Below are positions 31,437 to 49,923 of a DNA stretch of 57,294 bases, piece after piece. Origin of the DNA: an uncultured Lachnospiraceae bacterium (GTDB lineage: Bacteria > Bacillota > Clostridia > Christensenellales > UBA1242). The stretch is from contig CAZIPJ010000001.1 of assembly GCA_964541365.1 (NCBI GenBank), positions 1 through 57,294 of the forward strand. Direction: 5' to 3'. The notes beneath the pieces were generated by a model. That model was not told the origin of the DNA. It worked only from the letters and a program-made list of their open reading frames with translations, and made no database searches. Numbering within the stretch: position 1 is the stretch's first letter; each line of letters starts with the position of its first letter. Both the position numbers and the translations under genes were made by a program.

Positions 31437-34400
31437 TTATCTATTTGCAAGTTTTTCTCTACGCTTCTTGCGTCTTACTGAAATAATGATGAACAGCACA
31501 ATGAGCAAGAGAAGCAATCCAATAATTCCGATGATTAAATAAATGTACCAACCAGCACCCTGTTTACCTTGCAAGATGACTGCGTTTTGTGAAAGAACTC
31601 CAAACAAACCGCCATAGCTTACTGTCTCGTAAGTGAATGCGTTGTAGATGCCTGAAACTCTGTGTCCATTGAAATTAAAGAGACCATTGAATGGGAATTC
31701 TTCTGTTCCGATAGGTGTCCAGAATCTGTCTGAAAGTTCTAAATCCTTTTTCAAGATATAACTTGCGCTTCGATATTGCTTACCGTTTCCATAAGTTGCC
31801 CCGCTGTTGCAGAGCCTCATCATAAGCACCAATTCATCCACTGACGAAATCTCAAAAGGTTCGTCATCTGTGCCAGAGCCAGCAAAGCCAGAAGCACTAA
31901 CAGCATAATCTTCCCAAAGAAGTCTGTAATACTCAATTTCAATTTGAACAGTTCCAAGAATTCCTTTTGCTTCTATGAAATCCTTTGTCAAAATAAGGTT
32001 TCCTTTGTCGGTGAAAACAAGTTCATCCTTTGTCAAAGTCAAATCATAATTTTTTACAGTAATAGAAGAGATTGCATATCTTTGGTTTGTAACAAGTCCA
32101 ATTTCAATGCTTTGTGCATCAGCAGAAGCAGAAATTAAGTCTGCTCTTCTTCCCTTGAAAGTTGTGTAACCAGCAGCATTTACAAAGTTGTTGTCCATTG
32201 CATTTGTAGCTTTATCTGCATCAGCAAAGCGTCTGTTTACATAAATTGAAATTATTTCATTCTTGAACTCTGGCAAAATTCTCATCAAGTCGCCTTGTGG
32301 GCAGTTTTCAATGGCAAGGTCAAAATATGACAATCCGTTTTCATAATGAGAGAATTTGATATCGTCCCTGTTCCAGATAATTGCAAAGCCATAGTCAACA
32401 GCAACTGCAAATGTTACTTTGTCTCCAACTTTGACATCAATTCTATCAAGAGCTGGGATAAATTGTCCAGCACTGTAATTTCCAAGTCTATAAGCCCTGC
32501 TTGTGCCATCAGTTGATGTTGCAACAACATTCAAAATCTGTCCAAAAGTATAGTCATAAAGGTTTCCACTTTCGTCAGCGAAACTCATTCGGAATGTTCG
32601 TCCTTGAAGGTTCAAAATCAGTGTTGTTTTAGCAAGCGCCCTAAGGTCTTCCCAATCCTTTGTCCAACAAGTTTGACCTGTTGTGACATTGTTCCATCTG
32701 ACAAACTCATAGTCTTGCTCGTTGAACTCTGCAATAAGATTGAAGTTCTTTGTCGTGTCAACATAGTTTTGTTCGTTCAATGCTCTTGCCTGTGGGTCAG
32801 ATGCTTCTTGCTCAACCTTGAAACCACCTTCTCCGCCATACACAACAACATCAACAAGCGCAAAGTAAACAACTTGCACATCGCACTCAACAATCTTGTC
32901 AAGTTCGTTTGTTGACCAAGGCACTTCTTCTGAGAAAGTCACCACATCTTCAAGCCAATTTCCATTTATGTCTTTTTGCTTGATGACGAATTTATAGAAT
33001 TTGTAACCTTGAAGTTTTGGCGCTTTGATGTAAATATTTGTGTTGAAAGCAACTTCAATATAAAGTTTTGATGTTGGATAATACCAAGAATTTGTGTAGT
33101 CCACACCAGAAACCATATCTTGTGCAGTTGCATTGATTGAGACATTTGGAACAACTTCAAAATGAATTCTTGTTTTGTAATAAGACCAGTAGAGATAGAG
33201 CGTAATTTCCATTTCCCCAGTCTGAGAATTGAAGTAAGCATTTTCAGTAAGTTCGTATTTTGAAGTTAAGCTGTTGAGCTGATAACCGCTTTCATTCCAA
33301 GCTTGAAGCACTGTGCCGTCACTGTCGATGTACATCACGCCAGCGCCATTTTCACTTGTGAAGAAACCGTCAAAGTGATAGTTTTGTCTGCTCATCAAGA
33401 ATGCAAGTTTTCCATCGACAAACGCAAGCTTGTCTTGTGAAGTAAGGATTTGAATGTTTGCTTGGTTTATTTCTGAAAGTTCCAATCGAGAACCAAACTC
33501 AACATTTTTAACCACTGCCAACACATTTCCTTCTTCAACAAGCTTAACTGTGTAAGTTGTTGGATGAACAAGGATGTAAATTTCATTTTCAAACAGATAG
33601 TCTTTTACAATGAAGCTAACTTTCGCTGTGAAACCATCAAGTTTGATTGAAAGTTGTTCAACTTGAATTGAATCTCTGTCTATGATGTCGTTTTCGCAAA
33701 CAAGTTCAACATTCTTTTCGTAAATATAATAGCCAACTCTGATATAAGCAACTACTTCAAAAGTGCTGTCTGTGTAAGCTGAAACAGTGATTGAAGAATA
33801 GTCTCTACCAGAAGCAAACACCTTGTTTGCATTTTGTGCGTCAACCACATAGTTTATTGCACCAGCGTTAGTGTCAGTATCGGATACCTTGAAGCCAATT
33901 TTGATGTCATTTAAGTTTGGTCTAAACAAAACATCAATGTCCACTTCCGTTCCGCCAATTGCACCCATTATTGTATAGATTGCATAGTTTTCGCCTTTCT
34001 CGATTTGATAAACAGTCACAAGCATTGAGTTTGAAACCACATCAAAGAATTTGTAACCAACCTTTTTGGTGTTTATCTTGATGTAAACATCTTCACCTGT
34101 GTATCCAACAATCGTGAAAGCTCTATCGTCGACAAGTTTTCCGTCTACAAAATCTTCTGAGCTGTAACGAGTTCTTGTCCCTTCAATATAGCCATATTGA
34201 TTTACGCCCAAACCGTTTTCACTTTGCAGTTCAACTCCACCAACATCAATGTTAGGCTCTCTCACGCCTTCAATGTCAATTTCAGTGTTGATATTGATGT
34301 TGAAACTGTAAGCCTTGACAATGACATACAAAACAAAGTTAACAACATCTTCATCAAGTTCAAGACTTGAAATTGTAAACTGAACAGTGCGTTCTCCGCT

Positions 34401-37400
34401 TTCAGCAGTTTCAAGAATTACAAAATTGTTTCCGTTGTAATATCCAATACCATAGTAACGATACCCCGTTGGAACAACATAAGAAATTGTTTTGCTTGCA
34501 CCGTAATAAAGTTCAAGTGAATAGATATCATTTTCGGTGTCAGCATCCAAATATCTTTCTCCAAATCCCGCAATTTCTTGATAGATAGTTCTTTCAAGTG
34601 CAGGTTCGCCATATTCGGAGTTGAGAGTGTAATTGTTGTAAGTACCAAATCTAATTGTAAACTTCATTGATGAGAAGATTGCATAGATTGTTTCATTGTC
34701 TACAAGCTCATAGTCCAAAATCTCATCAGTGCTGAATACATTTTCTCCATCTCTGCTCCAACCTGCAAAACTGTAAATTGAAAGCATCTGGTAAGAAAGT
34801 GTAAGTTTTGTACCAAAATCTGCAACAATGCTTGAAAGTGAATTTTCTTGAATATATGCTTTGTTTTCTGGTTCGTCAACAAGTTGCTTCAATTCGTTGT
34901 AAGAAAGAGTTTCAACTTTCAAAGTAAATTGAGATATCTTGCTTGTGAACAAGATTTGTCCATCTTCTTCAATATCTGAAACGACAATCTTGTAATAGCC
35001 TTCCTGTGCGTACAAACCTTCTGTTGCAAGAGCACATTGAATGATATACTGAGAATCAGTTTCAAATTGAGCAAATTCATAACCGTGCTTGTATTTTAGA
35101 TACATTTCAAGTGTTTCGCCAGCCACTCTTCTCATCGTTGGCAATTTATCAAAATCTCTGTAAGTATTGCCATCAACAACAAGAGCTTCCACTTTGTCGT
35201 TTTCGCTGAACTTGACAACTATGTCATTGATAACTTCAAGTGTGCTAAGTTCAATTGAAACATCTCTCAAAACATTTGAAATTTCAATTGTCAACACATC
35301 GCTGACAACAGATGTTTTGACAACAACATCAGCGTCTTCGCAAATTACTTCTTCAAGCATCTGGAAGCCGTAAGAAGCAGAAACAACAAGTTTCAGGGCT
35401 TTTCCAGTTTGAAGTCTGACTGCGTTTGATTCAACAGAAAGAGCTTGTTCTGTTCCATCTGTTATGTCGTAAGCTAAAATTTGTCCAATATTATCGCCCA
35501 AAACTGAAACCGTGTTTGTTTTTGCGGTTGCAGAAATTTTGCAAACAAGATTTTCTGCTGGCATCTTAAAGCTTACAATGGCAACACCGCTTGAAACTGT
35601 CACCTTGAAGTTTTTATTCCAAGACTCAACATTTTCCAATGTATAGCCAGCATCTGCGGTAACATTGAATTCAATCTCTGTTTCAAAGTCAACACCATTG
35701 AGAGTGTAAACATTTCCATTCTTCACAAAGTTTGCAGAAGATGAAATTGAAACATTTTCAACAGTGATTGAAATATCAAAACTTGCGATTTGCCATCTCG
35801 CAGTAAGAGTGTGGTTTTGAGTAGTTGAAAGCACGCTCTGTCCATTGATTTTGTTTCCACTTGCGTCAAACCAACCAACAAAGTTGTAACCTGTACGAAG
35901 TGGAGTTTCAATCCAGTCAGAACTTTCTGCATAATTTTGTTTGAAAGGAACAGTAATCTTTTTGTTCTCAGTCTTTCCGTCAGCAAAGTCAAGAGTAACC
36001 ACCACACCAACAGCTTCAAAATTTGCAGTCAATGTAAGTTCTGTCTGACCTTGTGAAACCAAAGCTGAGAGCTTTGTATTCTCAAAATCGGAAGCAACAG
36101 TTGTTCCGTTTGAAATTGAAACAAGTTCAAAACCGTCTCTATGCAAACCAATGTTTGCAAGAGAGAATTGTTGAAGTTCAAGATAAGTTGCTCTCCAAGA
36201 ATACTTGTTGTCAGAGCCTTTCACAAATTTTGTTGATGAAATTGTTGCGTCAGACGCATCTGACAAATCAAATATAACATTCACTTTTTCAGCTTCAAAT
36301 CTTGCAACAAAGTTGTATGTTGTTGAAAGGTTTGCAACAGTCAACAGAGCTCCGTCAGCACTAGTTGAAACTGAAACTCCACTTGCTGTACCGTTGTCAT
36401 AGTGGATGCTTCCTGTCGCATTGTAGAAGCCATAATATGTGCAATGTTCATTTGCAATCGCTTTAAGAGTAAGTTTTGTGCCGTAGTCAAATCTTCCTGT
36501 GAAGCTTGCAGATGAAGTAATTTCAATTTCTTCTCCATTCCCTGCCACAAGCAAAACTTTTCCAAAGTCGGCATCAGCGCCGGTCTCATCAGCGACTTTA
36601 ATGCTCACTTGATATTTGTTTATATCCCAGTTTGCATCAAAAGTAAATTCAATGTCGTCATTCTTGTAATAAGTTCCAAACAAGTCTGTTTCATTGTTGA
36701 GAAGGGCTTTCAAAAGTTCAACTGTGTCAGCGTTGTTTCCAACATCAATCTTAAACTCTTGGTTTTCATAACTGTAATCTTGTCCAAGTGTCTTTCCAAG
36801 TTTTTTAAGAACAGAAGTAAGGAAAGTGTGTTGCATTGAGCCTTCTGCCACATTTTTGAATGACAATGTCCATTTTTCAAACACAAAACCTGTTCTTCCA
36901 GTAAGATTTGTTGGGAAGTTTCTAAGAGATGTTGTATTTGCATTTGCTGAGTTTGCAGTCAGATATGAATCTGACATAAATGGAAATGCAAGTGCTGAAA
37001 GCTGTGGCAAGTTGCTATTTTCAACATTTGACTTAACATTGCTTCCATTTGCATTGTAGTTGAAATTCAATTTCACTGTAACGGCTTCAATCACACCATA
37101 TTCCCAAGAAGAGAGCGCGTAATTTCCTGCATCAGCCCCGCCCAAGCGGAAGTTGATTGTGATTGCTTGCCCAATAAATTCTGTTGCATAAGTTGCACTT
37201 TCAATTTTCACATCATCATAGGCGTGAATTGTGGTTGTTCCGCCAAGCCCGTCAGAAACAACTTTGTCTTTGTCAACTGTGCCGACAAGCAAGATTCTTT
37301 CTTCGCCTTCTTCGTCAAGCAAAGCCACATCTTTTGTTCCGTCATACTTCTTTGTGAAGATGTCTTCAATTTCTTCCTTGACACCTTCAAGAGTAAGCGT

Positions 37401-40400
37401 TTTTGCAATGATTGAAACAGTTGCATCGTTCAAATTGTTTGCTTCTTTTCCATTGACAACAAACACTGGTCTGAAATCTGGTGTACCAACAGTGCATACC
37501 ATTGAGTAGTCACCGACTTTAAGAGAACCGCTTGTTGAATACTGTTCTTCTTCTGCGAAAGGCATAACTTTGACATCAACACCTTTCTCGTACCTGTTAA
37601 GGTTTACATCAGAAGAATATTCAAAATCGATGTCAACTGACTCACCATAAACGAAAGTTTGGTCTTTCACCGAAACAGTCAAGAGTGCAGGGATAATTTC
37701 TCCGACAAGAGCATCCCCGTCACTTGTGCAAAGATTCAAATTATAGTTTGTCTGTCCGCCGATGAGAGTTGCTTCAACATCATAAGAGTATCCAACATAT
37801 TTAGCTCGTTTGCCATCTTGTGTCAAACTGATTGAAAGAGTCAAGCCTTGAACATCGTCCGCCAAAATGCCTGAAAGCATTTGCGTTGGCTCATCATAGA
37901 CAATATCTGAATCGTCATTGTCAAAAACTTTTGTAATAGTTGAATTTATAAAGTAAACTTCTCGTTTTGTAATGCTTAAATTGAAACTGTGTTGTCCGTA
38001 TTTTCCAAGAGACACTTGGAGATTGTCCGCAGTCTCATCTGTTGCATTAATAACATAATTTCCAAAGTTTCTTCCGCCTGTTCCATTTGCAAAAGTGATG
38101 TTTGCTTTAAGTCCATCAACAGTCACATCACTAAGAAGCGTGTATTTGTCTTCTTCGGCATTATAAGAATAGTAGTTAAGGTCATAGTATTGTTTTGCAG
38201 ATGTTCTTGCTGTGCTTTCAAACACAAGTTGATATTTTTTGCTTCCTGCCTTTTGTGCAACAGTAACCTTATCATAAAGGTTTCCATCATAAACAATTGT
38301 TGCACTTTCGTCGTCTGTGCCCAAAACTTCTGGGGAATTGCTCATCAAGATATAAATCATTTCTTGCGCTTTTGCAATTCTGAATGCACCTTCACTTCTG
38401 TCTGTGACGCTTGCAACCTGATAATTTGCAGAAAGTGAGTTTGCTGACAAAACTTTGTAATAGCCAACTTCAACGCCATCTTCTCTTGTGAAGTTAAGTC
38501 TAATCACTTCGTTGAGTGGAGTTGAGAAGTCGCCAACAAATTCATCCGTTGTTGTTTCGCTTGCACCATAAACATAAATAAATTGTCCACTTGTTTGAAG
38601 AAGTACAGAAATTTCAAATGGTGAAACTGTTATGCTTTGTCCACTTGCAAAAATCAAATTATAGTTTGCAGAGCTTGAACTTTCATCAAGTGAAACCAAA
38701 TATGTATCACAATTTAAGTATCTTGCAGTGGAGTAAGTTGCATCCACCACATTTAAAACAATATTGTATTGTGAAGCTGAGATTGCAAAGCCACCTGCTG
38801 TCACTGTGAATGGAACAACATCTCTTGATGTCAAGTTTCCATAAACAAAATCTGTTTTTGTAAGAGCGATGTAAGCATCAGCCTTTGTGATTTTTCCTTT
38901 AAGTCCGTCAGTGTTTTTAAGTTCGTAGTTTACACTCTTTACGCCTTGCAAGAACATTGTTACATCAATGTCTTCCCCGACATTCGCACTGGCAAATCTT
39001 GCAACAAGTGAAACCCCGTCTTCTCCAACTTTCCCATCAAACTCATTGATTGTGAAAGTTGCAGAGCCTGTGTATTGCCATTCAAGAGCAAGACTGCTTG
39101 CATCAATTTCTTTCTTTGAAATTACAAAATTGTATTCTTCTGCAAAAGCAAAGTTTGAGTGAGTTGAAGAATTTGCACGAAGTGACAATCTGAAACTTCC
39201 CGCATCAACAAATGAAGTTGTGTTTGTTCCTGAGAAGATTTCAAGACTGTTGAAAGCGACATCTTCCACTTCGGAGCCATCGCTGGCATAAGTAAATTGC
39301 AGGTTTGCAGTTTCCGTTACGCCGTTGTTAGCAACTGATAAAGTTTTTGCAGAAGCATCCACAGTCAAGCTGTATGCAAGTCCATTATACACACCAGACA
39401 AAAGGTCTTTATCCAAAGTTATGTAAACAAGATTTTCTTCTGTCTTTACTTCAAAACCATTATTTTCTGCTTCAATGCTCAAAACAATGCTTCCGTTTAC
39501 ATATTCTGTTTCTGCCAAAGCCAGAGAATAATGTCCAACAACTGCTGGACTTCCAACGGTTGCACCAACAACACTGTAAAGAATATCAAATGTGTCGCCC
39601 GTTTCACTGAAAGTGTAGGTTTCTTTATAAGTTGCTTCAATATTTTCGCTTGCAAGAATTGAGAACTGTCCAACTGAGATTCCTTTATTGATTCTCTTTT
39701 CAGCAATCACAACTGTTGGCAAGTAAAGATTCATATTAAAATCATCAAATGAAGCTGTTGCTTGAAGTTGATAACTTCCTTTATATACATAACCATTTGC
39801 ATTTGCAAGAGCAGTTGTTGGCAAAGAGTATTGAATATTATAATAACCGTTTGCCAAAATGTCAGATACATCATTCCCGTTCAAGTCAGAAATAGTGTAG
39901 TTTTTGTTCACATTAGAGTCAAGATTGCTTATTGAAATTTCACCATATTCATAAACATCCTTGCTCATTGTTGCAGTAAGTCTTGCAGACAGTTTTGAAA
40001 TTGTCGCTTGTGCACTGCTTTCTGAAAGTTGATAGTTTGAGATTGCGTCTGATGAATTTGTATCCAAAAGACTTAAATCAACTCTGGTCTGTCCAGCGTG
40101 TGCACTTGCATAAGTTGCCAAGATGTAAACGCCGTCAAAACTGTCAATGTCTTCAATTTTTGTGCCACTAACATCAAAGTATTCTGTTGCTTTTCCGTCG
40201 TACACTTTGTCCAAAGCAAGTTCTGATGCATCAATCAAAATCTTTCCGACAACAAATTGATAACCTTGTGCAAAAGTGAGATTTGAATAGTATTTTGAGA
40301 TTTCTTCCAACCCTTCAAAAACATAAGTATATGTTCCACTTGCTGTAACAGTTTCGTGTGACGCAGTGTCAAACAGTTTAAGCTCAACGTTTTTGAAACT

Positions 40401-43400
40401 ATCCAAGAGCAACGACAAAACTTCTGAGTTTGAAATTTGTGCATCAGCAGTTTCGTCAAACAAATTCAAAGTCAAAATCTTGATTGGCAAGCTTCCATTG
40501 TAAATTTTAAGCGTCAAGTCATCGAGTTCAACTCTGTATCCATCCGCACTGTAACCCACTTCAATTGTTTCTGGATTTGCATCTGAAACCTTGTAGGACA
40601 GTCTCAATGTTCCACTTGTCAAAATTTCAAAAGTTCCAACGCTTGTTGTTTTTCCAAGTTGTGTAAGTTTTCCATTTTCAAAGAGAACAACTCCGTTCAT
40701 CTTAACAGTGTAGTTGTCTTTCAAAGCTTCTGTCAATGAAGCAACTGTCAAATCATAAGTTCCAACATCTTCGCCAAAGCCCCTTACAAAGCTGAATCTA
40801 ACTGTCTCATTTGCAAGATAGATGTCTCTGATAAGTTCTGGTTCTTCACCGTTGAAGTTTTTGCTGTACTTAATCTCATATTCTGAAAGTTCAACTTCAT
40901 AAGGTTTAACAACAACTTCAAAAGTCAAAGTGCCAAACTCTGCTGAATTTGAATATACAACATCGCTTCCTGACACTGTGATTATATATGTGCCAGCGTC
41001 TTTCATTGATGTAGTCAAAACGCCATTTCTTGTGATTTGGATGTTTAAATTTCTTGCGCCAGCATAATATTCAAGCAAATAATTTGGATTTTCTCCATAC
41101 TGTCCAAGTTCGGTATCATAAATTGCATATTCAACTCTGAAATACCAATTATTGAGCTTATCTTGTCCGTCATAATCAAACTCTGAGTCACCAACAAAAG
41201 TGATTTCATTGAGTTTATTTTTGATAAACTCCATTTCAAAGGTCACTTCAAAGGAATTTGTTGCACCTTCACTGCTTACAAGTGCAGTTGTCAAAAATTC
41301 TTTCTTAACATTTGCGGTTACAACAAGTTTGTAAGTCCCGTTGTCATCAACTGTTCCATTTCCATCAAGAGTGAATCTTTCAACTCTTGAAATAAGTTCG
41401 TCGCCCTTGTACCATTCATAAGTGTAGTTGAAAAGGTTTTCGTTTTTGTTATAGATGCTTACAACATCGTCAACAGACAAATATTCAAATCCATAAACAC
41501 TTGTCTTATACTCTGTCAAGCTTTGTCCATAAGTCATCTCTTCAATCATCCACTTAGCTTCAAGTTCAACCTTTGCGTGTCTGTCAGATGAATTGATTCC
41601 TTTAAAAGTTCCATCAGTGCTGTCAAAAAGCTTTTCATAAGAAACTTTCGTCTTTGTTGAAGTCAAAGAAGCAAGCTTGAAACCATTTTCGTTTGGCATA
41701 AGCAAGTCTTCAACAGTTGAAGCACCAAGTTTAAGCAATGAAGTTGTTGCAGAAGAAGTTGAGTAGTTGCTTGGGAAATTTAAGTTGTAATTTACCAAGA
41801 CCATATCTGTATAAACTGCATACAAATTGTAAGTTGTCACCATTCCGGCTTCTTCTGATAATGAAGCTTTTTCAATTGTGAAACTTGTGTTGTTTTCCAT
41901 CGTTCCGTCGATATTGAAAGTCTCAGTTTCGCTCCACTTGTAAAGAGCCAAATAGTCACTTAAAGATTTTTCTGTTGTTGAAACAGTTACTGTCAAAACA
42001 AACTTAGACAAAATCGCTGAGATTTCGTTTGCGTTGTTGTTTTCGATTTGACAAATAATAACGCCGTTGTCTTCATAGTTTCTTACCTGCAAGTAACCAT
42101 TTGTTGAATCTGACAATCTTCTCACCCCAAGTCCATCGTTCAAATCATAAGTAACTTGTGTGATTCTAAGCAAGTTTTGAGAAACTGTTGTTGGCAATTC
42201 TCCAAAGTTCATAAAGCCATTAAGATAGGTCAAATATTTTGCAGAAATGTCAATTGTTGCAACCCCGTCAACATTCAAAATTGAGAAGATATCATCTTCG
42301 CCAAGGATGAGTTTATAACGGTTTGTGACATCAGTCATCACAATCTCGCCATTCAAAACGCTTCTTTCATAGATTGAAACATTTGTGTAATACAGATAAT
42401 TCTTATCAGAAACAAAGCTATAATCTACATCCTCCTTTTCTTTTCCATTGTTTGAAGTAAGAAGATTTGCTTTTGCATACAATGTGTCGTCAATCTTGTA
42501 ATAGCCTTCAAAGCCTTCAAGCATAAGTTCTTGACGATTTCCTTGCCAAGCTGATGAAGCACTTGCAAGATTTGCGTTGTAATAGGCAGCTTTTGACGCA
42601 GCTCTATTTTCAACTTCCAAAAGCTCTGGCAAAATATAAACTTGCCCAAGGTTGACATACGCATCACCATTTTCGTCGTAGTTCAAAACGAAATTGCCAA
42701 GGCTGTTTTGTCCATCAGCATTTCTTATGTAAGCTCTGAAATAATAAGTTGTGTCAACATTTATGCTTGTTGCAGATATTTCAACTCTGTCGATTTCAAC
42801 TTCTCGTCTTGGGTTTTCCACAGTTGGAGAACTGAACACAATCGAATTATTATAAACAGAGAAATCATTTATTGCAGAATTTTTATGGTTGTAGAAATCG
42901 AAGAAATACATTCTTGAAACAACATTTTTTACATCATTTTCAATAGTTGCTCTCTGCTCTGCAAAATCAGCATAAGTCATTTCTTTGTAAGTTTTGTAGT
43001 TTGTTGAAGTGAGCATATAGAAGTATTTGTACATCACAAACTCATACGCTTGCTTGTTTGTCACACCTGATGTAACAGTGCTGTCGAGCGAACTTAAAAC
43101 ATTCTTAACAAACGCATCAAAAGTGTTGCAATTTTCAATACGTGCCATTGTTGCACTTGGCACAAACTTAGACATAATTCTCTTGACATTAACAAGCCAA
43201 ACATCTTCGTTGTCACTTTCAATTCCAACAGAAAGAGTTGTTTCTGAAATCTGTGCGTAAAGACTGATTGTTTGTGTATAAAGTGTCACGCCTTCTGAAA
43301 TCAGGTCTTCCAATGTCAATACAAGCGTCACATTGTACAAGCCGACATTCTCAGCAGAGAAAGCAGAATTTCCAATTACATCAACCATAGCGGAAGTGAT

Positions 43401-46400
43401 TTCAACATTCACTTTTGCCCCAACAGCATCGTTTACAGTGATTGAAATTGTTTGGTCGTCAACAATTTCCACGATATACCCATCTGCATTAAACCCATTT
43501 TCAAAGAACTCTGCAATGTAGAACATTACATCATTTGATGTGTACTGTTTTGAAATCAAATTTTGTGTAAGGCTCAGAGCAAGATGAGTTGAGTCAAATT
43601 GCCAGTCGATGAAGATTTTAAGTGATACGTCTTCATTGTCACTCAGCACGCATCCAGGAAGAGTCTCACTAAACAAAGTTGAAGATGTAATTGTCTGAGT
43701 GTAAGTCCCGCTTGCATAAACTCCATTGAATACAAACCCTTCACGAGTTGGTGCATTTTCGCCTGCCATCAAACCGTAAGCATTAAAGGCTTCCGCAAAT
43801 GAAGCACCATATGCCATTTCAAAATCAATTGTGCTTTCGGCTTCATTCCCAGCAATTGTGTTTGCCCCATTTGTCACAAGTTGAACCTTGTAAGTCTTTG
43901 GAGTCCAAAGAGCATAGACATTTAAATTGTTTGTTGAAATATAATTTCCAAATTCATCAATAATTGCTTCGTACGCTTTGCTTTGTCCGTTTTCATCAAA
44001 AACGATTGTATCTTTGTCGTCAATTGCAAGTGTCCAACCGGCAAGCGCATAACCAACTTTTGAAATGTCATTAAATGTCAATACGCCTTCCACTTTTTGG
44101 TCATAGTTTACTGTGATTGAAACACTTTCGTTTGCAACATTGTCTCCGCCAAACACACCTTGGTTTCTTGAAAATTGAATAATGTATGAGTTTGGAGTCC
44201 AGTTTCTGTAAACGACAAGCTCGATAGAAGTCTTGTCGTCAGTTGTGCCGACAAAGTAAGAACTTGCAACAAAGAGTTGTGAGCCGTTCAATGCCCCGCT
44301 ACTTGCACCGTTTGACCAATACCAATACGCATTTGCTGGTGTTGTATAGCCAACTCTGCCAGCAAACAACTCGTCAATAACAACACTCTTTGCTGTTCCG
44401 TCAACCATTGTTTCAAAATTTGGATTTGTTGTGTTTAAGTAGATTGAACTTCCAACACCAACATCAGAAATTGTAACAATTGTATTTGCTGTCTCGTTTC
44501 CATCCACATCAAAAACTTTTCCATTCTTTCCATCGGTGTAAGCACCATCAATTCCATTTCCAGTGCCTGAAACAAATGAGATGTTTGCGGTCTTTCTTGT
44601 CAAAATAGGAACAAGCGTGTAAAGAGTCAAGTTTTTCATTGTTTCATCATTTTCCAATTTGTCAATGAAGAAACTCTTAACTGACGCCCCAGTGAATGCA
44701 ACCCCATCACCTGAATAAATTGTGTCCACCACAGCATTTGATGAATTCAAAATTATAAAGCCATTGAAATAGTATGAATCGCCGTTTGTTCCACCTTTAC
44801 CAAATGACACAAACAAATCTTGCTCTGCATCATTTGCAGTATCAACACTGTAAGAATAATTGATTCTGTTGAATGATATAACAACACCCAAACTTCCTGC
44901 GGTTGTGTAAGAGTCATCACCTGTCACTGAAACTCTGTCGCTAAGAGTTATGTCGATTTCTTTTCTGATATAAACAGCGTTTATTTCAACTTTGTAATTT
45001 CTCTTTCCAACAATTTCTGCTGATGTTACACCTGTTGCAACATAGTCATAAATTGATGAGAAAACAAACTCAATATCCTGACTTCTGCCTAGATTAGCAT
45101 CAAAATCTTTCAAAAAGCCTGACCACTTTTCACTTTCAACATACCAGTCAAAGAATGTGTAACCGTTGTTGTCTCCAAGTGCAGTTTCCATTGAGATTTC
45201 ATCGCTGAAAAGGATTGTATCATCTCCGCTCTCAATTGCCTGTGCATTTTTCTTTGCAACGACAGTTGGCAAACCTTGAACCAAATTCTCATCAGTAAGG
45301 ATTGTCTTGTCTAATGCGACCATTGCAGAATAGTTTTCGCTCTGGTCATATTTGATAAACTTTGTACCAAAATCGATTGAGTAATTTACCGGCTGACAAA
45401 CAAATTTGATTGTGTATTTTCCAGCACGAAGCTCATTTGTGAATGAAAGTGTAAACTGATAATTGTCATATGCAGTTTTGTCTGCATTGTCATACATTGA
45501 CAACTTTCCATTTTTGCTTACACTGCCCACGCTGAAAAATTCTGCATTGTTTTCATTGAAATTATTGAGCCAACCTTGTCCATTATCACTTTCAGAAACT
45601 TGTGTTGCAACAGTTTCTGCAACAATCAAAACATTTTCCTTTGCATTTGGAATATTTCTTCCAGTCAAAACAACTGAAATCTTTCCATCCAAAGTTGTTT
45701 CCAAAAGTTTGTAATAATCAGACGCTGTGAAATTTATTTTAACATCTTGCGTTTTTCCATCATCTGGCAGCCCCAAATTTGTATTTCCATCTATGTAAGC
45801 TGTTGGCAAAATTCCCGTTCTGATTGGATTTCCGTCAACATCGACAAACTTCAAATCAAACGAAACTTTTGTATATTTTGAAACAAGTGTGATTCTTGAA
45901 TATTCTTCATACAAATCACCTGCAACAGACCATCCAATTTGTGAAGTTAATCCGTCTGCGATTTCATCAATTTTGATATCGTGTTGAATTTTCTTAATAG
46001 AATCTCCATCACTGAAAGCTTTTGTCAAAACTTTTGTGTTTGCATTTTTATAGACATCATATTCTCCACCATTTTGGAAATTGTCATAGTTTCTGTCTGG
46101 GACAACAATCTCAGAAGCATCATCTTGCACACTTCCCAAAAGCACGAATTCCGCACCAGTCAAATAAGAGATTTTTCGGAATGTCGTTTCATCATCTGAC
46201 AAAACCAAAGTCGCAATAAGGTCAATCTTTTCCCAGTTTTCGTTTTGATAGAGCATTTCATAAAGCACATACGCTGGATATTCAACTGTGTTTAAACCAA
46301 CTTTCTCCAAATAAGTTTCTTTAACAAATTTGAAATATCTAGTTTTCTCTGTGCCATTGTCATCAAACTTATATCCAAGCAAAACATCGGTGTACGCTGA

Positions 46401-49400
46401 CATATCAATATCAAATGCGTGTCCGTTTGAATCATCTTCTTTTCCGACAGTTTCAGCAGAAGAAACGAAACTCTTGTTGATTACATCATAACCAACAAAC
46501 AGCTGTTCAACAACTTTTGTTGTGGCAAGCATTGCTTCTGGCGCACCATCAAAACCATTTGCAAAAACTGAAAGCTCTTTTGTATTTGGAATGTTTGGAG
46601 CAAGTGCAAAGTACAGTTCATCAGAGCTTACATTGAGTTCTGTACTGAACAATTTTCTCTGTACAAAAACATCAAGAGTATAGTCTCCAACAAGATTCAA
46701 GAAAGTTTGTCCGTCAACTGCAAAAGCTGAATAGTCTTGCTCAACACCCGCTTCACTTGTCACACTGCTTCCTTTTGCGTAGCTCATATGACCAAAATTG
46801 AAGTCTGTTCCGCTTGCCAAATCTCTCAAAATGATATTACCTGAAATATCATAACCACTCTTAAAATTGAATTTAAGACTCAGTCCGTTTGTTGTCAAGT
46901 CACTGAATGTTGTATCAAAATCAAAGGATACGATAAGTTTTCCATTTGCATCTTCACTGCCGAGCAAGCCTTGCTTTGTCCAATTTTCAGTTCCGCCATA
47001 AGAAGAAAGTGTCACACTCTCAATTGCATCAGCCAAATCAAGATTTCCAAGAATTTTGTCATCAGTCTTATTGAACGCAACATTAAATTGATAATTAACT
47101 TCGGAGCTTCCGACCCACTTCACATAAATCTCTGAGTGTTTAAGATTTTCATCATTTGCAAAGGCTGTTCCGTCAACCAAAGTTCCAAACAAGTCTCCGT
47201 CTTTCTCAAAGTAGAAGCCTTCAATAGTGAAGTCCTTTCCCCTGAGCAAGTTGCTTCCATCTGCACTTGCAACCTTTCCGTCTTTCGTTGGAGTTGTATT
47301 GAAAATGTGTGGATAATCAATGCTGAGAATTGAGTCATATTCCACTTGATAAACTTGGCTTCTTACATAGCTTGCGGTGTTGTCAGCCTTGAAATTGTCC
47401 ACTTCATATTGGTTGTAAACAACTTGAAGACTTTTCGCTTGTTGCACTTCAAAGTTTGCACGAAGTCCCAAAATCAATGCACTGTTTAAAGCACCAAAAT
47501 TTGTTGCATCAAGAGCAAAGGTTGAATGCGCACCACCAAGCATTGAGTAACTAGTAAGTTTTGAGCCTTTCTTAACCAAAATGTCAAAATGGTTGTCTTT
47601 TTCAGAAATTTTGTCAGAAAGTTGTGGAAGTGACATCCCCCAACTTCTGTCAGGAATATTTACAGTTTCAATTCCGTCAGCGTCATATGTTGCTCTTGAA
47701 AGCAAATCCCCTTCGGCATCAACCATCAAGTGATATGTGCCAGAAATTATTTTTCCGTCTTTGTCATAGAAAACACCACCATTTCCGTCGAGTTCAACAT
47801 CATATGCAGTTTTTGCTCCTGTCACCGAGAGAGTTTTTATTTCCCCGTCAACAAGGTTATTTTTCCCATAAGCAACAGTAAGAGCATCGCTTTCTGCTTT
47901 TCCGACTGTTTTAAGTCCATAAATATTTGAGTTGTCGACGCAGTTTGCAAGGTATGTATTTGCCCGAGCATAACCTACGAGCGCTCCCATAACACCTGCA
48001 CTTGTCGAGCTTTCAAGACTTCCTGTACCGCCATTGATAAATCTTACATCTGCAACAGTGAGATTTTTAATAACAGCATTTGATGTCACACCAAAAAGTC
48101 CGTGGTAAGAATATTGGAATTGAAGAGAACAAGTCATTCCATAGATTGTGTGACCATTTCCGTCAAACACCCCAGAGAATGCATTGTCATTTGAAGCACC
48201 GATTGGTTGCCAAGTTCTCCCCGTCAAATCGATATCATTTTGCAAAGAGAAATATTTCCCTGACCAGTTTGCATTCCCTTGTTCACTTGCATCATAATTT
48301 GCTGACACATAACCAAGGTCAGAAGCGGTAAAAATCAAATATGGATTTTCAAAACTTCCATCTCCTTCAAGCTCTGTTGAAAAAGATGTGTCATTATTTG
48401 GATTTCCAAGATTTTGAGTTTTGAGAAGATAAGGATAACTGTTGTTGATTCCTGTTGAAATCCCCCACACTGTTTCAAAATCCCAAGTAGCATCCGCGAA
48501 ATATTTTTCATTTGAATAAAAACTCTTTGTCTTTGCAAGCGTTGCAAGCCCAATCACAGCAGTCGAGTCTGCAACATAAGAGTCCACATTATGCCAAACA
48601 TTTGACACTCTCACTGTGCTTCCGTTTGGATTTGCATAGATTGGAGAGTTGTTTCTTGCTGAGCGTGCGGTATCAATATTGAAGCAGTTTGAGATTGTCT
48701 TTGTTCCGCTTCTTGCAAAAAGTCCAAAAAGACCACTACAATACTTGCTGTCATCGTCAGAGTTTTTCCAGTCAAGCTTTCCAGCATTGTAAAGATATGA
48801 CATTTGAAGAGAGCCAGTCACCCCTGCAACATTTGCAACAAGTCCAGCTGTGTATGTCCCTGAGTTTTTCACACTTCCAGCATTGTAAGAATTTCTGAAA
48901 TTTCCAAAGGCATCAATTTGACCAAGAAGACCGCCAGCATAAGTTGCATTTACATCAATGCTGCCCTTAAATGCAATTTCTTCAAGCGTACCGTTACCGA
49001 CAGCGTATTTACCAAACACACCGCCAACTGCGGTTGATGCACTTCCGCCTGCCTTTGTTGAAATCTCCACATCTGAAAGGATGTTTGAAACATTACGAAG
49101 TGTCGAACCAACACTTTCACCAACAGCACCGCCGACATAGTTTACACCGTCGACTTCAATCTTACCTGTCACTGAAAGGTTTCTGTTTGCACCGGTTGAA
49201 GTATTGAGATTTCCGACAATACCACCAACAGCTTCCTTTCCACTTGCCTTAATATCAACATCGACAAGGTTAAGATTGGAAATCGTTCCAACAGTTGTTC
49301 CAAACAAACCAACATAGTTTGAAGTGGAATTATGAATTTTTAAGTTGTATATGTAATGACCATTTCCGTTGAATCTACCTTTAAACATATGGTTGTCGTC

Positions 49401-49718
49401 ATAACCAATAGGAGTCCATTCATTGCCAGCCAAGTCAATATCACAGTCAAGCACAACGTCTTGGTCCATATATTGCGAAATACCAGTTCTCACTCTTTCG
49501 GCAAAGAATCCAAATCCACTTGCAGTCAAGATGTGGGATGTCCCATCAGCCACATAAAAATCAGCCGCATCAACTTCTGACAAATATTCCCCATCCCAAA
49601 CACTTGCAGTTGTGCTCTGGGCATATACTTCATTTTTTCGGACTGAGAAAAATCCGAGAGTGGTAAACACTCCCAAAATCAAAACTGACAGAAAAACAAA
49701 AATTGATTTCTTTCTCAC
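31437..49718 (-). CDS. Giant (6093-aa) cell-surface repeat protein: signal peptide, GLUG-type regions, Listeria-Bacteroides (InlB B / Flg_new) repeats, YDG (MBG-like) modules, C-terminal TM anchor
   Basis: One uninterrupted 18,282-nt ORF with GTG start 49718 and AAGGAGAA SD. N-terminus MRKKSIFVFLSVLILGVFTTLGFFSV...VYA|QS. Repeated GG(I/L/A)VG motifs near both ends. Modules such as RTGYNFVGWFDASGNKI...LTARW (about 35790-35990) and WTPNSYIIQF...GYALAGWTL...ALWTPKTYKV (about 43690-44205). KVYDGKATEY and TKKYDGTKDV modules at about 37100-41000. C-terminus WYIYLIIGIIGLLLLLIVLFIIISVRRKKRREKLANR. Confidence 0.9.
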   Translation of the reverse strand: MRKKSIFVFLSVLILGVFTTLGFFSVRKNEVYAQSTTASVWDGEYLSEVDAADFYVADGTSHILTASGFGFFAERVRTGISQYMDQDVVLDCDIDLAGNEWTPIGYDDNHMFKGRFNGNGHYIYNLKIHNSTSNYVGLFGTTVGTISNLNLVDVDIKASGKEAVGGIVGNLNTSTGANRNLSVTGKIEVDGVNYVGGAVGESVGSTLRNVSNILSDVEISTKAGGSASTAVGGVFGKYAVGNGTLEEIAFKGSIDVNATYAGGLLGQIDAFGNFRNSYNAGSVKNSGTYTAGLVANVAGVTGSLQMSYLYNAGKLDWKNSDDDSKYCSGLFGLFARSGTKTISNCFNIDTARSARNNSPIYANPNGSTVRVSNVWHNVDSYVADSTAVIGLATLAKTKSFYSNEKYFADATWDFETVWGISTGINNSYPYLLKTQNLGNPNNDTSFSTELEGDGSFENPYLIFTASDLGYVSANYDASEQGNANWSGKYFSLQNDIDLTGRTWQPIGASNDNAFSGVFDGNGHTIYGMTCSLQFQYSYHGLFGVTSNAVIKNLTVADVRFINGGTGSLESSTSAGVMGALVGYARANTYLANCVDNSNIYGLKTVGKAESDALTVAYGKNNLVDGEIKTLSVTGAKTAYDVELDGNGGVFYDKDGKIISGTYHLMVDAEGDLLSRATYDADGIETVNIPDRSWGMSLPQLSDKISEKDNHFDILVKKGSKLTSYSMLGGAHSTFALDATNFGALNSALILGLRANFEVQQAKSLQVVYNQYEVDNFKADNTASYVRSQVYQVEYDSILSIDYPHIFNTTPTKDGKVASADGSNLLRGKDFTIEGFYFEKDGDLFGTLVDGTAFANDENLKHSEIYVKWVGSSEVNYQFNVAFNKTDDKILGNLDLADAIESVTLSSYGGTENWTKQGLLGSEDANGKLIVSFDFDTTFSDLTTNGLSLKFNFKSGYDISGNIILRDLASGTDFNFGHMSYAKGSSVTSEAGVEQDYSAFAVDGQTFLNLVGDYTLDVFVQRKLFSTELNVSSDELYFALAPNIPNTKELSVFANGFDGAPEAMLATTKVVEQLFVGYDVINKSFVSSAETVGKEDDSNGHAFDIDMSAYTDVLLGYKFDDNGTEKTRYFKFVKETYLEKVGLNTVEYPAYVLYEMLYQNENWEKIDLIATLVLSDDETTFRKISYLTGAEFVLLGSVQDDASEIVVPDRNYDNFQNGGEYDVYKNANTKVLTKAFSDGDSIKKIQHDIKIDEIADGLTSQIGWSVAGDLYEEYSRITLVSKYTKVSFDLKFVDVDGNPIRTGILPTAYIDGNTNLGLPDDGKTQDVKINFTASDYYKLLETTLDGKISVVLTGRNIPNAKENVLIVAETVATQVSESDNGQGWLNNFNENNAEFFSVGSVSKNGKLSMYDNADKTAYDNYQFTLSFTNELRAGKYTIKFVCQPVNYSIDFGTKFIKYDQSENYSAMVALDKTILTDENLVQGLPTVVAKKNAQAIESGDDTILFSDEISMETALGDNNGYTFFDWYVESEKWSGFLKDFDANLGRSQDIEFVFSSIYDYVATGVTSAEIVGKRNYKVEINAVYIRKEIDITLSDRVSVTGDDSYTTAGSLGVVISFNRINYSYSVDTANDAEQDLFVSFGKGGTNGDSYYFNGFIILNSSNAVVDTIYSGDGVAFTGASVKSFFIDKLENDETMKNLTLYTLVPILTRKTANISFVSGTGNGIDGAYTDGKNGKVFDVDGNETANTIVTISDVGVGSSIYLNTTNPNFETMVDGTAKSVVIDELFAGRVGYTTPANAYWYWSNGASSGALNGSQLFVASSYFVGTTDDKTSIELVVYRNWTPNSYIIQFSRNQGVFGGDNVANESVSITVNYDQKVEGVLTFNDISKVGYALAGWTLAIDDKDTIVFDENGQSKAYEAIIDEFGNYISTNNLNVYALWTPKTYKVQLVTNGANTIAGNEAESTIDFEMAYGASFAEAFNAYGLMAGENAPTREGFVFNGVYASGTYTQTITSSTLFSETLPGCVLSDNEDVSLKIFIDWQFDSTHLALSLTQNLISKQYTSNDVMFYIAEFFENGFNADGYIVEIVDDQTISITVNDAVGAKVNVEITSAMVDVIGNSAFSAENVGLYNVTLVLTLEDLISEGVTLYTQTISLYAQISETTLSVGIESDNEDVWLVNVKRIMSKFVPSATMARIENCNTFDAFVKNVLSSLDSTVTSGVTNKQAYEFVMYKYFYMLTSTNYKTYKEMTYADFAEQRATIENDVKNVVSRMYFFDFYNHKNSAINDFSVYNNSIVFSSPTVENPRREVEIDRVEISATSINVDTTYYFRAYIRNADGQNSLGNFVLNYDENGDAYVNLGQVYILPELLEVENRAASKAAYYNANLASASSAWQGNRQELMLEGFEGYYKIDDTLYAKANLLTSNNGKEKEDVDYSFVSDKNYLYYTNVSIYERSVLNGEIVMTDVTNRYKLILGEDDIFSILNVDGVATIDISAKYLTYLNGFMNFGELPTTVSQNLLRITQVTYDLNDGLGVRRLSDSTNGYLQVRNYEDNGVIICQIENNNANEISAILSKFVLTVTVSTTEKSLSDYLALYKWSETETFNIDGTMENNTSFTIEKASLSEEAGMVTTYNLYAVYTDMVLVNYNLNFPSNYSTSSATTSLLKLGASTVEDLLMPNENGFKLASLTSTKTKVSYEKLFDSTDGTFKGINSSDRHAKVELEAKWMIEEMTYGQSLTEYKTSVYGFEYLSVDDVVSIYNKNENLFNYTYEWYKGDELISRVERFTLDGNGTVDDNGTYKLVVTANVKKEFLTTALVSSEGATNSFEVTFEMEFIKNKLNEITFVGDSEFDYDGQDKLNNWYFRVEYAIYDTELGQYGENPNYLLEYYAGARNLNIQITRNGVLTTSMKDAGTYIITVSGSDVVYSNSAEFGTLTFEVVVKPYEVELSEYEIKYSKNFNGEEPELIRDIYLANETVRFSFVRGFGEDVGTYDLTVASLTEALKDNYTVKMNGVVLFENGKLTQLGKTTSVGTFEILTSGTLRLSYKVSDANPETIEVGYSADGYRVELDDLTLKIYNGSLPIKILTLNLFDETADAQISNSEVLSLLLDSFKNVELKLFDTASHETVTASGTYTYVFEGLEEISKYYSNLTFAQGYQFVVGKILIDASELALDKVYDGKATEYFDVSGTKIEDIDSFDGVYILATYASAHAGQTRVDLSLLDTNSSDAISNYQLSESSAQATISKLSARLTATMSKDVYEYGEISISNLDSNVNKNYTISDLNGNDVSDILANGYYNIQYSLPTTALANANGYVYKGSYQLQATASFDDFNMNLYLPTVVIAEKRINKGISVGQFSILASENIEATYKETYTFSETGDTFDILYSVVGATVGSPAVVGHYSLALAETEYVNGSIVLSIEAENNGFEVKTEENLVYITLDKDLLSGVYNGLAYSLTVDASAKTLSVANNGVTETANLQFTYASDGSEVEDVAFNSLEIFSGTNTTSFVDAGSFRLSLRANSSTHSNFAFAEEYNFVISKKEIDASSLALEWQYTGSATFTINEFDGKVGEDGVSLVARFASANVGEDIDVTMFLQGVKSVNYELKNTDGLKGKITKADAYIALTKTDFVYGNLTSRDVVPFTVTAGGFAISASQYNIVLNVVDATYSTARYLNCDTYLVSLDESSSSANYNLIFASGQSITVSPFEISVLLQTSGQFIYVYGASETTTDEFVGDFSTPLNEVIRLNFTREDGVEVGYYKVLSANSLSANYQVASVTDRSEGAFRIAKAQEMIYILMSNSPEVLGTDDESATIVYDGNLYDKVTVAQKAGSKKYQLVFESTARTSAKQYYDLNYYSYNAEEDKYTLLSDVTVDGLKANITFANGTGGRNFGNYVINATDETADNLQVSLGKYGQHSFNLSITKREVYFINSTITKVFDNDDSDIVYDEPTQMLSGILADDVQGLTLSISLTQDGKRAKYVGYSYDVEATLIGGQTNYNLNLCTSDGDALVGEIIPALLTVSVKDQTFVYGESVDIDFEYSSDVNLNRYEKGVDVKVMPFAEEEQYSTSGSLKVGDYSMVCTVGTPDFRPVFVVNGKEANNLNDATVSIIAKTLTLEGVKEEIEDIFTKKYDGTKDVALLDEEGEERILLVGTVDKDKVVSDGLGGTTTIHAYDDVKIESATYATEFIGQAITINFRLGGADAGNYALSSWEYGVIEAVTVKLNFNYNANGSNVKSNVENSNLPQLSALAFPFMSDSYLTANSANANTTSLRNFPTNLTGRTGFVFEKWTLSFKNVAEGSMQHTFLTSVLKKLGKTLGQDYSYENQEFKIDVGNNADTVELLKALLNNETDLFGTYYKNDDIEFTFDANWDINKYQVSIKVADETGADADFGKVLLVAGNGEEIEITSSASFTGRFDYGTKLTLKAIANEHCTYYGFYNATGSIHYDNGTASGVSVSTSADGALLTVANLSTTYNFVARFEAEKVNVIFDLSDASDATISSTKFVKGSDNKYSWRATYLELQQFSLANIGLHRDGFELVSISNGTTVASDFENTKLSALVSQGQTELTLTANFEAVGVVVTLDFADGKTENKKITVPFKQNYAESSDWIETPLRTGYNFVGWFDASGNKINGQSVLSTTQNHTLTARWQIASFDISITVENVSISSSANFVKNGNVYTLNGVDFETEIEFNVTADAGYTLENVESWNKNFKVTVSSGVAIVSFKMPAENLVCKISATAKTNTVSVLGDNIGQILAYDITDGTEQALSVESNAVRLQTGKALKLVVSASYGFQMLEEVICEDADVVVKTSVVSDVLTIEISNVLRDVSIELSTLEVINDIVVKFSENDKVEALVVDGNTYRDFDKLPTMRRVAGETLEMYLKYKHGYEFAQFETDSQYIIQCALATEGLYAQEGYYKIVVSDIEEDGQILFTSKISQFTLKVETLSYNELKQLVDEPENKAYIQENSLSSIVADFGTKLTLSYQMLSIYSFAGWSRDGENVFSTDEILDYELVDNETIYAIFSSMKFTIRFGTYNNYTLNSEYGEPALERTIYQEIAGFGERYLDADTENDIYSLELYYGASKTISYVVPTGYRYYGIGYYNGNNFVILETAESGERTVQFTISSLELDEDVVNFVLYVIVKAYSFNININTEIDIEGVREPNIDVGGVELQSENGLGVNQYGYIEGTRTRYSSEDFVDGKLVDDRAFTIVGYTGEDVYIKINTKKVGYKFFDVVSNSMLVTVYQIEKGENYAIYTIMGAIGGTEVDIDVLFRPNLNDIKIGFKVSDTDTNAGAINYVVDAQNANKVFASGRDYSSITVSAYTDSTFEVVAYIRVGYYIYEKNVELVCENDIIDRDSIQVEQLSIKLDGFTAKVSFIVKDYLFENEIYILVHPTTYTVKLVEEGNVLAVVKNVEFGSRLELSEINQANIQILTSQDKLAFVDGKLAFLMSRQNYHFDGFFTSENGAGVMYIDSDGTVLQAWNESGYQLNSLTSKYELTENAYFNSQTGEMEITLYLYWSYYKTRIHFEVVPNVSINATAQDMVSGVDYTNSWYYPTSKLYIEVAFNTNIYIKAPKLQGYKFYKFVIKQKDINGNWLEDVVTFSEEVPWSTNELDKIVECDVQVVYFALVDVVVYGGEGGFKVEQEASDPQARALNEQNYVDTTKNFNLIAEFNEQDYEFVRWNNVTTGQTCWTKDWEDLRALAKTTLILNLQGRTFRMSFADESGNLYDYTFGQILNVVATSTDGTSRAYRLGNYSAGQFIPALDRIDVKVGDKVTFAVAVDYGFAIIWNRDDIKFSHYENGLSYFDLAIENCPQGDLMRILPEFKNEIISIYVNRRFADADKATNAMDNNFVNAAGYTTFKGRRADLISASADAQSIEIGLVTNQRYAISSITVKNYDLTLTKDELVFTDKGNLILTKDFIEAKGILGTVQIEIEYYRLLWEDYAVSASGFAGSGTDDEPFEISSVDELVLMMRLCNSGATYGNGKQYRSASYILKKDLELSDRFWTPIGTEEFPFNGLFNFNGHRVSGIYNAFTYETVSYGGLFGVLSQNAVILQGKQGAGWYIYLIIGIIGLLLLLIVLFIIISVRRKKRREKLANR

Positions 49719-49810
49719 TTGATTTTCTCCTTGCCCTAAATGATGTTGTCAGGCTTTATCATTTTCATTTTACAATAAATGTCACTTCTTATGCAAACGA
49801 ATATAAAAAA

Positions 49811-49835
49811 TATATATATTTTTAATATATATATA
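49811..49835. repeat. AT-dinucleotide repeats forming an imperfect palindrome upstream of the giant gene
   Basis: TATATATA (49811-49818) TTTTTA ATATATATATA (49825-49835), in the 234-nt region between the trpS terminator and the giant-gene start. Confidence 0.8.
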
Positions 49836-49923
49836 AATTAAACTTTTAATCGTCAACCCCAACATTTTTACTTCCATTTTTTCAGTAAAACCTGCTATTC
49901 TTAGTTGTATTTTGCTCAGAAAA

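Follow-up and report, generated by a model that had tools for sequence, protein, structure and literature searches.

We analysed a 57,294-nt stretch of contig CAZIPJ010000001.1 (the whole stretch is hereafter called the window) from an uncultured bacterium of the family UBA1242, whose genome assembly comprises 999,857 bp in 68 contigs and is 92.6% complete. The minus strand of the window carries a giant gene that encodes a protein of 6,093 amino acids (aa). An earlier note on this DNA, made from the letters alone, described a single 18,282-nt open reading frame (ORF) with a GTG start codon and a strong Shine-Dalgarno sequence, a description that holds in full. The translation is free of stops, no other long frame lies between 31437 and 49718, and an AAGGAG Shine-Dalgarno sequence is located at 49727-49732, 8 nt upstream of the GTG. 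Orthologues are colinear with the ORF and begin at the same aligned position (M-K/R-K-K-S-I-F), which supports the assigned start. What the earlier note missed is that the gene belongs to a length-conserved, syntenic orthologue family in a lineage with reduced genomes and no sortase.

The encoded protein is acidic and contains little Cys (0.3%) or Pro (1.3%), and the GC content of the gene equals that of its flanks. An alternative genetic code was rejected, as translation with table 4 hardly alters ORF lengths.

An orthologue family of conserved length and position

A word-indexed search recovered 24 related proteins, 22 of them full-length (5,821-6,411 aa). These relatives are 26-59% identical to the query by best local alignment, mostly with coverage of the whole query, and 29-62% identical when aligned end to end in a multiple alignment. 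The gap fraction of that alignment is 0.00-0.05 across aa 1801-6093 and 0.03-0.15 before. Sliding along the chain, conservation is lowest at aa 600-1600, stands at 54% at aa 401-600 and is highest, at 61%, at aa 5401-5600.

When aa 4900-6093 were searched exhaustively against 1.84 billion representative sequences, the family grew to at least 34 full-length, colinear representatives of 50%-identity clusters, which measure 5,819-6,416 aa (mean 6,149, coefficient of variation 2.5%) and show 26-64% identity. The same search returned a sister group of about 4,300-4,740 aa with 25-29% identity, as well as roughly 2,000 proteins whose similarity is confined to the head module described below, often present in multiple copies. 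One orthologue, MGN1201614.1 (5,853 aa), is listed at NCBI as ‘InlB B-repeat-containing protein [Candidatus Caccovivens sp.]’. Ca. Caccovivens corresponds to GTDB UBA11517 in the family UBA1242, order Christensenellales (PMC8035907). A contig search with the C-terminal 693 aa yielded one Bacteroidales locus, which proved spurious.

The comparison of ORF length and repeat number across strains that the earlier note had proposed showed that length is fixed within 90%-identity clusters and that repeat number does not vary. In one such cluster 10 of the 15 listed members are 6,090 aa long, and in a second cluster six of nine are 6,192 aa long, in both cases on separate contigs. Sequence is held far less tightly. 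In one relative (G132) identity to the window is 64-82% for the housekeeping neighbours but 39% overall for the giant protein (P0015), indicating a protein that evolves fast while its length is kept.

Distribution within the lineage is uneven. Of 61 species of the genus, about 23 carry a clear orthologue, which forms a complete frame of 5,853-6,437 aa in 19 cases. In about 20 more the only counterpart is a distant relative, mostly of 4,312-4,925 aa and otherwise of 1,379-10,364 aa, and 17 species yielded nothing at E ≤1e-10. Outside the genus, other members of the family match only through the head module, or through the head module with the helix and tail that follow it, and these matches fall in other giant frames of 2,000-8,400 aa, with one frame of 18,042 aa. 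Paralogy inside the genome was considered and set aside, as similarity of its other giant ORFs to this gene is limited to single modules.

The chromosomal position is also conserved. Five relatives carry the gene within the same block, which reads dnaB, two hypothetical genes, gltX, trpS, the giant gene, uppP, and genes for a P-type ATPase, HolB, PSP1 and a methyltransferase. In G093 the contig ends and only the upstream side of this arrangement is readable, and in G136 trpS is absent at that spot. Adjacency of uppP to the giant gene is kept in G052, G132, G088 and G136.

Two hydrophobic ends and no sortase

A Kyte-Doolittle scan found 19-residue segments above 1.8 at two places only, aa 4-27 and aa 6053-6084. 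The first forms the core of the cleavable-looking signal peptide recognized in the earlier note, with predicted cleavage between VYA and QS. Orthologues keep its n/h/c layout and a downstream S-T-x-A-S-x-W-D-G sequence. The second segment is a C-terminal helix that is present in 23 of 23 orthologues and appears as a long helix from aa 6056 in an AlphaFold2 model. It is followed by a basic tail, the protein end reading ...SVRRKKRREKLANR. In most orthologues the tail consists of a [KR]-rich run, then R-E-x-L/M, then x-x-K/R.

As the earlier note had stated, the protein ends in this hydrophobic helix and basic tail in place of an LPXTG, S-layer-homology (SLH) or choline-binding anchor. No ORF of at least 200 aa in the genome has LPXTG in its last 50 aa, and the single LPxT[GAN] in the giant protein is located at aa 3299. 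Sortase (PF04203) was not found in the genome of the window (92.6% complete) or in 40 further genomes of the family (each at least 90% complete, representing 40 other genera), while it was detected in control genomes. No SLH domain was found in the genome, and no sortase, secretion or glycosylation genes flank the giant gene, again in agreement with the earlier note.

The same note called the protein membrane tail-anchored. Anchoring by a membrane helix stands, but the strict sense of the term does not: the protein has an N-terminal signal peptide and a body of extracellular-type domains, and the tail-anchored class was therefore rejected. Because a signal peptide is present, the C-terminal helix is best read as a stop-transfer anchor, which would give the protein type I topology with the basic tail in the cytoplasm.

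Such a protein would have to span the cell wall, as the earlier note had also proposed. Genes for peptidoglycan synthesis are present in the genome, including a penicillin-binding protein (PBP) transpeptidase, four Mur ligases and MraY, so the cell makes peptidoglycan that the fibre would have to cross. A wall-less, Mollicutes-like host was rejected on the same grounds. Twelve proteins in the genome combine a signal peptide with a C-terminal helix and basic tail, and 13 more, one of them giant, have a lipobox-like N-terminus; additional giant frames have lipobox-type starts. The lack of sortase, LPXTG and SLH, the helix or lipobox ends and the presence of a wall together suggest that this lineage tethers its surface proteins to the membrane, from which they must reach through the wall.

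The 12-13-residue tail conserves more than charge, with R-E-x-L/M-[AS]-x-K/R found in most orthologues, a pattern hinting that it may be a recognised motif. A match of the protein end to GG_III-CTERM (NF041738; cut-off 22 bits) was dropped. The score is 23.6 bits when the end is searched in isolation but 17.5 bits in context, and the match is not kept in orthologues, whose ends score 17.0 or 13.9 bits or show no match; it looks like a generic match to a hydrophobic helix. A literature search for ‘GGIII’ returned only unrelated uses of the term.

A mosaic of diverged domains

The two halves of the protein and ten 720-aa tiles were scanned with Pfam and NCBIfam profiles at curated cut-offs, and the tiles also down to E 1. 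The families that the earlier note had proposed were not all missed. TIGR02543 (List_Bact_rpt; 34.7 bits, cut-off 20.95) and Flg_new_2 (PF18998; 30.7 bits, cut-off 23.6) pass. Flg_new (PF09479) falls just short, with 26.9 bits against a cut-off of 27, and three others fail: YDG (PF18657; 21.0 bits against 25), MBG_2 (PF18676; about 15 bits, 15.5, against 25) and Glug (13.9 bits against 20.5). Peptidase_M26_N fails as well (15.7 bits against 27.7), the matched portion being its C-terminal part at the same place as the Glug match. The proposed families are hinted at by these results and cover only a few percent of the chain.

Internal similarity is sparse. A BLAST search of the protein against itself revealed a head module of about 100 aa that occurs three times, at aa 63-177, 452-574 and 5947-6048 (nucleotides of about 49188-49532, 47997-48365 and 31575-31880, respectively). 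The copies match each other with BLAST E values of 1e-8 to 1e-12 and profile E values down to 3e-23; module 2 matches module 1 at 9e-13 and module 3 at 8e-11 by BLAST, with a profile E value of 3e-23. The only other signal was a weak pair, aa 3089-3256 and 3469-3626, and nothing else matched at E <1e-3. These head modules account for the regions at the N-terminus and before the anchor that the earlier note had described as GLUG-like: they are real internal repeats, although the Glug family itself scores below its cut-off.

More distant relationships emerged when profiles made from the orthologue alignment were searched back against the giant protein. Modules resembling InlB B-repeats are scattered at aa 780-853, 1761-2040, 4319-4378, 4582-4671, 4982-5035 and 5380-5525. 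In the YDG/MBG-like region, aa 3081-3300 match aa 3466-3685, 3910-4074 and 4162-4223 with E values down to 3e-19. The earlier view that many InlB B-repeat and YDG modules fill the centre of the protein was overstated, as the profile self-searches point to a handful rather than dozens, although TIGR02543 and Flg_new_2 do pass. The self-searches reveal a mosaic of diverged domains, not an array of tandem repeats.

A predicted beta-helix tip and beta-sandwich stalk

The distal tip begins with the first head module, followed by G-G-x-V-G rungs. A phmmer search against the Protein Data Bank (PDB) matched aa 84-305 to 3n6z_A at E 7.5e-8. This structure is a structural-genomics protein from Bacteroides ovatus that was deposited as a ‘putative immunoglobulin A1 protease’. 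At the opposite end of the chain, the third head module abuts the membrane helix and contains many invariant columns, including F5999, W6000, T6001, P6002, G6004 and T6005. The head module and helix together also terminate giant ORFs in at least eight other genera.

Two pieces of about 1,200 aa were modelled by AlphaFold2 with a 23-sequence alignment, together covering 2,394 of the 6,093 residues. Both models are confident. That of aa 651-1850 (pLDDT 78.7) is mostly beta with some short helices, and that of aa 4900-6093 (pLDDT 79.8) is nearly all beta. Foldseek searches of the second model against the PDB retrieved PitA, T-antigen, a TIE protein, SpaC, SdrD B domains and GBS52, with E values of 1e-6 to 5e-4 and probabilities up to 1.00. 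The first model gave weak matches to pilin, immunoglobulin (Ig) and adhesin chains, the best being 8f70 at E 1.3e-5. Thus aa 651-1850, which make up most of a region that the earlier note could not recognize (about aa 650-1900), are modelled as a chain of mostly beta domains, although the fold matches are weak. A phmmer search of aa 4801-6093 against the PDB found no match.

Flanking sequences and neighbouring genes

The features of the gene, the protein and the immediate flanks are collected in Table 1. Upstream, trpS is closed by a terminator-like hairpin at 49929-49954, identified by a pattern scan. Between this hairpin and the Shine-Dalgarno sequence lies an AT-rich spacer of about 200 nt with weak sigma-70-like matches, which may serve as the promoter of the giant gene. 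Alternating TA tracts (tatatatatat..., atatatata) occur in this promoter region at 49800-49850 on the minus strand. Such tracts are prone to slippage, so expression of the giant gene might vary.

Table 1. Positions in the window of the giant gene, its predicted protein regions and its flanking features
Feature	Residues (aa)	Position (nt)	Strand	Basis and remarks
Upstream intergenic region		49719..49952	minus	trpS hairpin, AT-rich promoter region, Shine-Dalgarno; pattern scan and sequence
Giant gene	1-6093	31437..49718	minus	6,093 codons plus stop, 673 kDa, pI 4.4; ORF list and translation
Predicted signal peptide	1-33	49620..49718	minus	MRKKS, hydrophobic core aa 4-27, predicted site between VYA and QS; hydrophobicity scan
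Distal tip domain 1	63-400	48519..49532	minus	head module aa 63-177, then G-G-x-V-G rungs; homologous to 3n6z beta-helix
Head module 2 and short beta-helix continuation	452-599	47922..48365	minus	
Most variable part of fibre	600-1600	44919..47921	minus	22-33% mean identity, gap fraction 0.08-0.15
Listeria-Bacteroides/InlB-B-like modules	~1761-2040	43599..44438	minus	Flg_new 21-24 bits (cut-off 27); self-matches 1833-1882, 1924-1965
Related YDG/MBG-like modules	~2860-4230	37029..41141	minus	below cut-offs; profile self-search
InlB B-repeat modules passing cut-offs	4580-4725	35544..35981	minus	TIGR02543, Flg_new_2
Membrane-proximal stalk	4900-5940	31899..35021	minus	most conserved, all-beta, about a dozen sandwich domains; identity 40-61%, gap fraction ≤0.03
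Head module 3	5942-6048	31575..31895	minus	abuts membrane helix; internal repeat
Predicted C-terminal transmembrane helix	~6057-6081	31476..31550	minus	Kyte-Doolittle maximum 3.62
Basic tail RRKKRREKLANR, predicted cytoplasmic	6082-6093	31440..31475	minus	
uppP (BacA)		30600..31358	minus	78 nt downstream of giant stop; Pfam BacA 222.9 bits

Downstream, the earlier note had placed uppP 78 nt from the giant stop codon with no recognizable terminator between the two genes. The BacA profile bears out the gene assignment, and neither the pattern scan nor the sequence reveals a terminator-like hairpin in this interval, suggesting that the giant gene and uppP are possibly co-transcribed.

Other genes of the block show features of their own. 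The trpS of the window (49953-50945, minus strand, 330 aa) shares only about 33-36% identity with the trpS genes at the same position in four relatives (356-364 aa), whereas the other neighbours of the giant gene are 54-85% identical. To judge from these identities, it looks as if trpS has been swapped for a divergent type in this genome. Two genes without a Pfam match lie between gltX and dnaB, at 52672-53778 and 53788-54609 on the minus strand. Both are conserved, and one bears a lipoprotein signal (…LGLSGCG). Identity with the syntenic counterparts is only 24-39%, so the pair evolves about as fast as the giant protein.

Several other giant frames were observed among the genomes sampled. Genome G004 has an open frame of 18,042 aa with the head module or conserved stalk (contig C5, about 36659-37030), which would amount to about 5% of that genome, and G091 has a frame of 10,364 aa with the head module or conserved stalk (contig C6, about 75197-76165); both genomes are about 1.0-1.1 Mb. 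In G000, a 3,490-aa frame that runs off the end of contig C9 overlaps in sequence (...LPKTNIL) with a 3,084-aa frame at the start of contig C8. Probably the assembly split a single lipobox-anchored gene of about 6,570 aa into these two frames. Contig C7 of G000 carries, on the minus strand from the contig end, a frame of at least 8,314 aa that has the same kind of C-terminal helix and basic tail (…HKRRRHRAKMMAR) without a head module before them; the frame begins outside the contig.

Relation to known surface proteins

The closest parallels in architecture are the fibrillar adhesins and pilus stalks of Gram-positive bacteria, such as PitA, SpaC, T-antigen, SdrD B, Cna B and the Bacillus anthracis TIE protein. 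A signal peptide, a long beta-sandwich stalk, a distinct distal domain and a C-terminal anchor are common to both. However, the giant protein lacks LPXTG and sortase and is anchored by a membrane helix, its stalk domains have all diverged, and its length is fixed across strains and species. The near-fixed length and the placement of a head-like module against the membrane are unusual in comparison with these systems. As a single polypeptide, it is several times the size of typical fibrillar adhesins or pilins.

Likeness to the GLUG/Peptidase_M26_N beta-helix, represented by 3n6z and by the N-terminal region of streptococcal M26 IgA1 proteases, is confined to the tip at aa 84-305. Unlike M26 IgA1 proteases, the giant protein has no metalloprotease domain, and the Pfam cut-offs are missed. 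Moreover, the first ~100 aa of the 3n6z-type domain are reused here as a stand-alone module beside the membrane. Among the Listeria-Bacteroides/InlB B-repeat families (PF09479, PF18998 and TIGR02543), one to a few modules pass in the giant protein. Since these make up a few percent of the chain, the InlB-B name does not describe the whole.

The layout of a signal peptide, a C-terminal hydrophobic helix and a charged tail is shared with the ActA-type proteins of Listeria, which are anchored in the membrane beneath the wall. ActA is about 640 aa long and largely disordered, and it has no sequence relation to the folded, 6,093-aa rod.

A probable contact fibre and its alternatives

We consider it probable that the giant protein is a Sec-exported, type I membrane-anchored fibre for contact or adhesion. 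The N-terminal signal peptide would direct the chain into the Sec pathway, and the C-terminal helix would halt transfer and, with the cytoplasmic basic tail, hold the protein in the membrane. In this role the helix would substitute for the sortase/LPXTG anchoring that is absent from the lineage. The approximately 6,000 extracellular residues are predicted to fold as some 60 mostly unrelated beta-sandwich stalk domains, a number that extrapolates the model's density of about 12 domains per 1,030 aa and is an estimate, not a measurement. If each domain adds about 4 nm, the rod would extend for approximately 200 nm, again an estimated rather than a measured value. With roughly twelve sandwich domains, the conserved C-proximal ~1,000 residues would suffice to span a Gram-positive wall, and the two 3n6z/GLUG-type beta-helix heads and the variable aa 600-1600 would be exposed at the far N-terminal end. 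The most likely role for such a structure is contact with, or adhesion to, another cell or surface, in a bacterium that is thought to live off partners.

Several observations weigh against this interpretation. Only about 23 of the 61 genomes searched in the genus contain a clear orthologue, so the protein is not essential to the lineage. The near-identical tandem repeats and variable length that are usual in classical fibrillar adhesins are both absent. No ligand-binding domain of known specificity was found with Pfam or NCBIfam, and 3n6z itself has no known function. TM-scores in the Foldseek searches are low (≤0.1 on the query), since each comparison involved an entire multi-domain model. 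Finally, signal-peptide cleavage and topology were assessed by hydropathy and by eye alone.

The main rival to a contact fibre is a structural spacer, ruler or coat fibre of fixed length, which would hold an outer layer at a set distance or serve to shield the cell, with length rather than binding under selection. The small variation in length among the 34 diverged representatives and the fixed length within 90%-identity clusters favour this explanation, and it also accords with the colinear and almost repeat-free sequence, the location of the gene in a housekeeping block instead of an island, and the conserved head module at the membrane face. However, a core envelope part would oddly be without a match in about 17 of the 61 genus genomes and be represented by a distant relative of another length in about 20 more. 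Furthermore, the distal third evolves fastest, as expected of an exposed interaction surface, and the fold relatives are stalks of adhesins and pilins. We regard the spacer explanation as rather unlikely.

A relationship of the tip to 3n6z and to the helix region at the N-terminus of M26 IgA1 proteases could instead point to a surface-displayed enzyme or toxin-delivery protein, in which a long stalk would hold, for example, a protease, glycosidase or polymorphic toxin. Giant proteins elsewhere sometimes bear peptidase or toxin domains (bioRxiv 10.1101/2023.11.21.568195). But the M26 match is restricted to the non-catalytic helix part, the whole giant protein contains no HExxH motif, and searches of Pfam and NCBIfam revealed no catalytic or toxin family, even to E 1 on the 720-aa tiles; this alternative is very unlikely. 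An artefact is extremely improbable, whether through chimeric assembly, collapse of a repeat or misreading of a decaying pseudogene as a single frame. Although the exact sequence is known from one contig only, it aligns end to end and with few gaps to 22 relatives from independent assemblies, offers almost no internal repeats that could collapse, retains an intact and conserved signal peptide and anchor, and occupies the same chromosomal position in five relatives.

The contact-fibre interpretation can be carried further, although we view the following extension as speculative and doubtful. The fibre might be part of a dedicated attachment apparatus with which these sortase-less Clostridia, with genomes of about 1 Mb, live on the surfaces of other gut cells, as a Firmicutes counterpart of the episymbiosis of Patescibacteria. 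The head-like module, helix and K/R-rich R-E-x-L tail would then constitute a new, sortase-independent anchoring or sorting cassette, recognised by a putative partner. At least nine genera of the family have this conserved end-piece, on different giant proteins.

Significance for the lineage

Members of UBA1242 are widespread in animal guts and uncultured, and their metabolism predicts dependence on other cells; their reduced genomes have been read as those of probable obligate symbionts or parasites (PMC12306168). The genomes of the family sampled here measure 0.7-1.6 Mb, in the same range as reported for UBA1242. The text of PMC12306168 does not contain the words adhesin, surface, attach, giant or sortase, and the mode of contact of these bacteria is therefore not discussed there. 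Giant Listeria-Bacteroides-repeat or adhesin-like proteins have been noted in general terms in gut Clostridia (bioRxiv 10.1101/2023.11.21.568195), and our literature search found no paper on the orthologue family described here.

ORFs of at least 2,000 aa take up 10.6% of the DNA of this 1.0-Mb genome, a costly investment in the cell surface. Within it, a fibre of about 6,100 residues is held at near-constant length while its sequence drifts to about 30% identity. The protein is also a natural example of a long, non-repetitive rod of beta domains with sortase-free anchoring. For the lineage itself, whose members probably depend on partners, the fibre is a good candidate for the means of contact with other cells. 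Antibodies or labelled probes directed at it could help to identify the partner or substrate, and it could also serve as a marker for enrichment.

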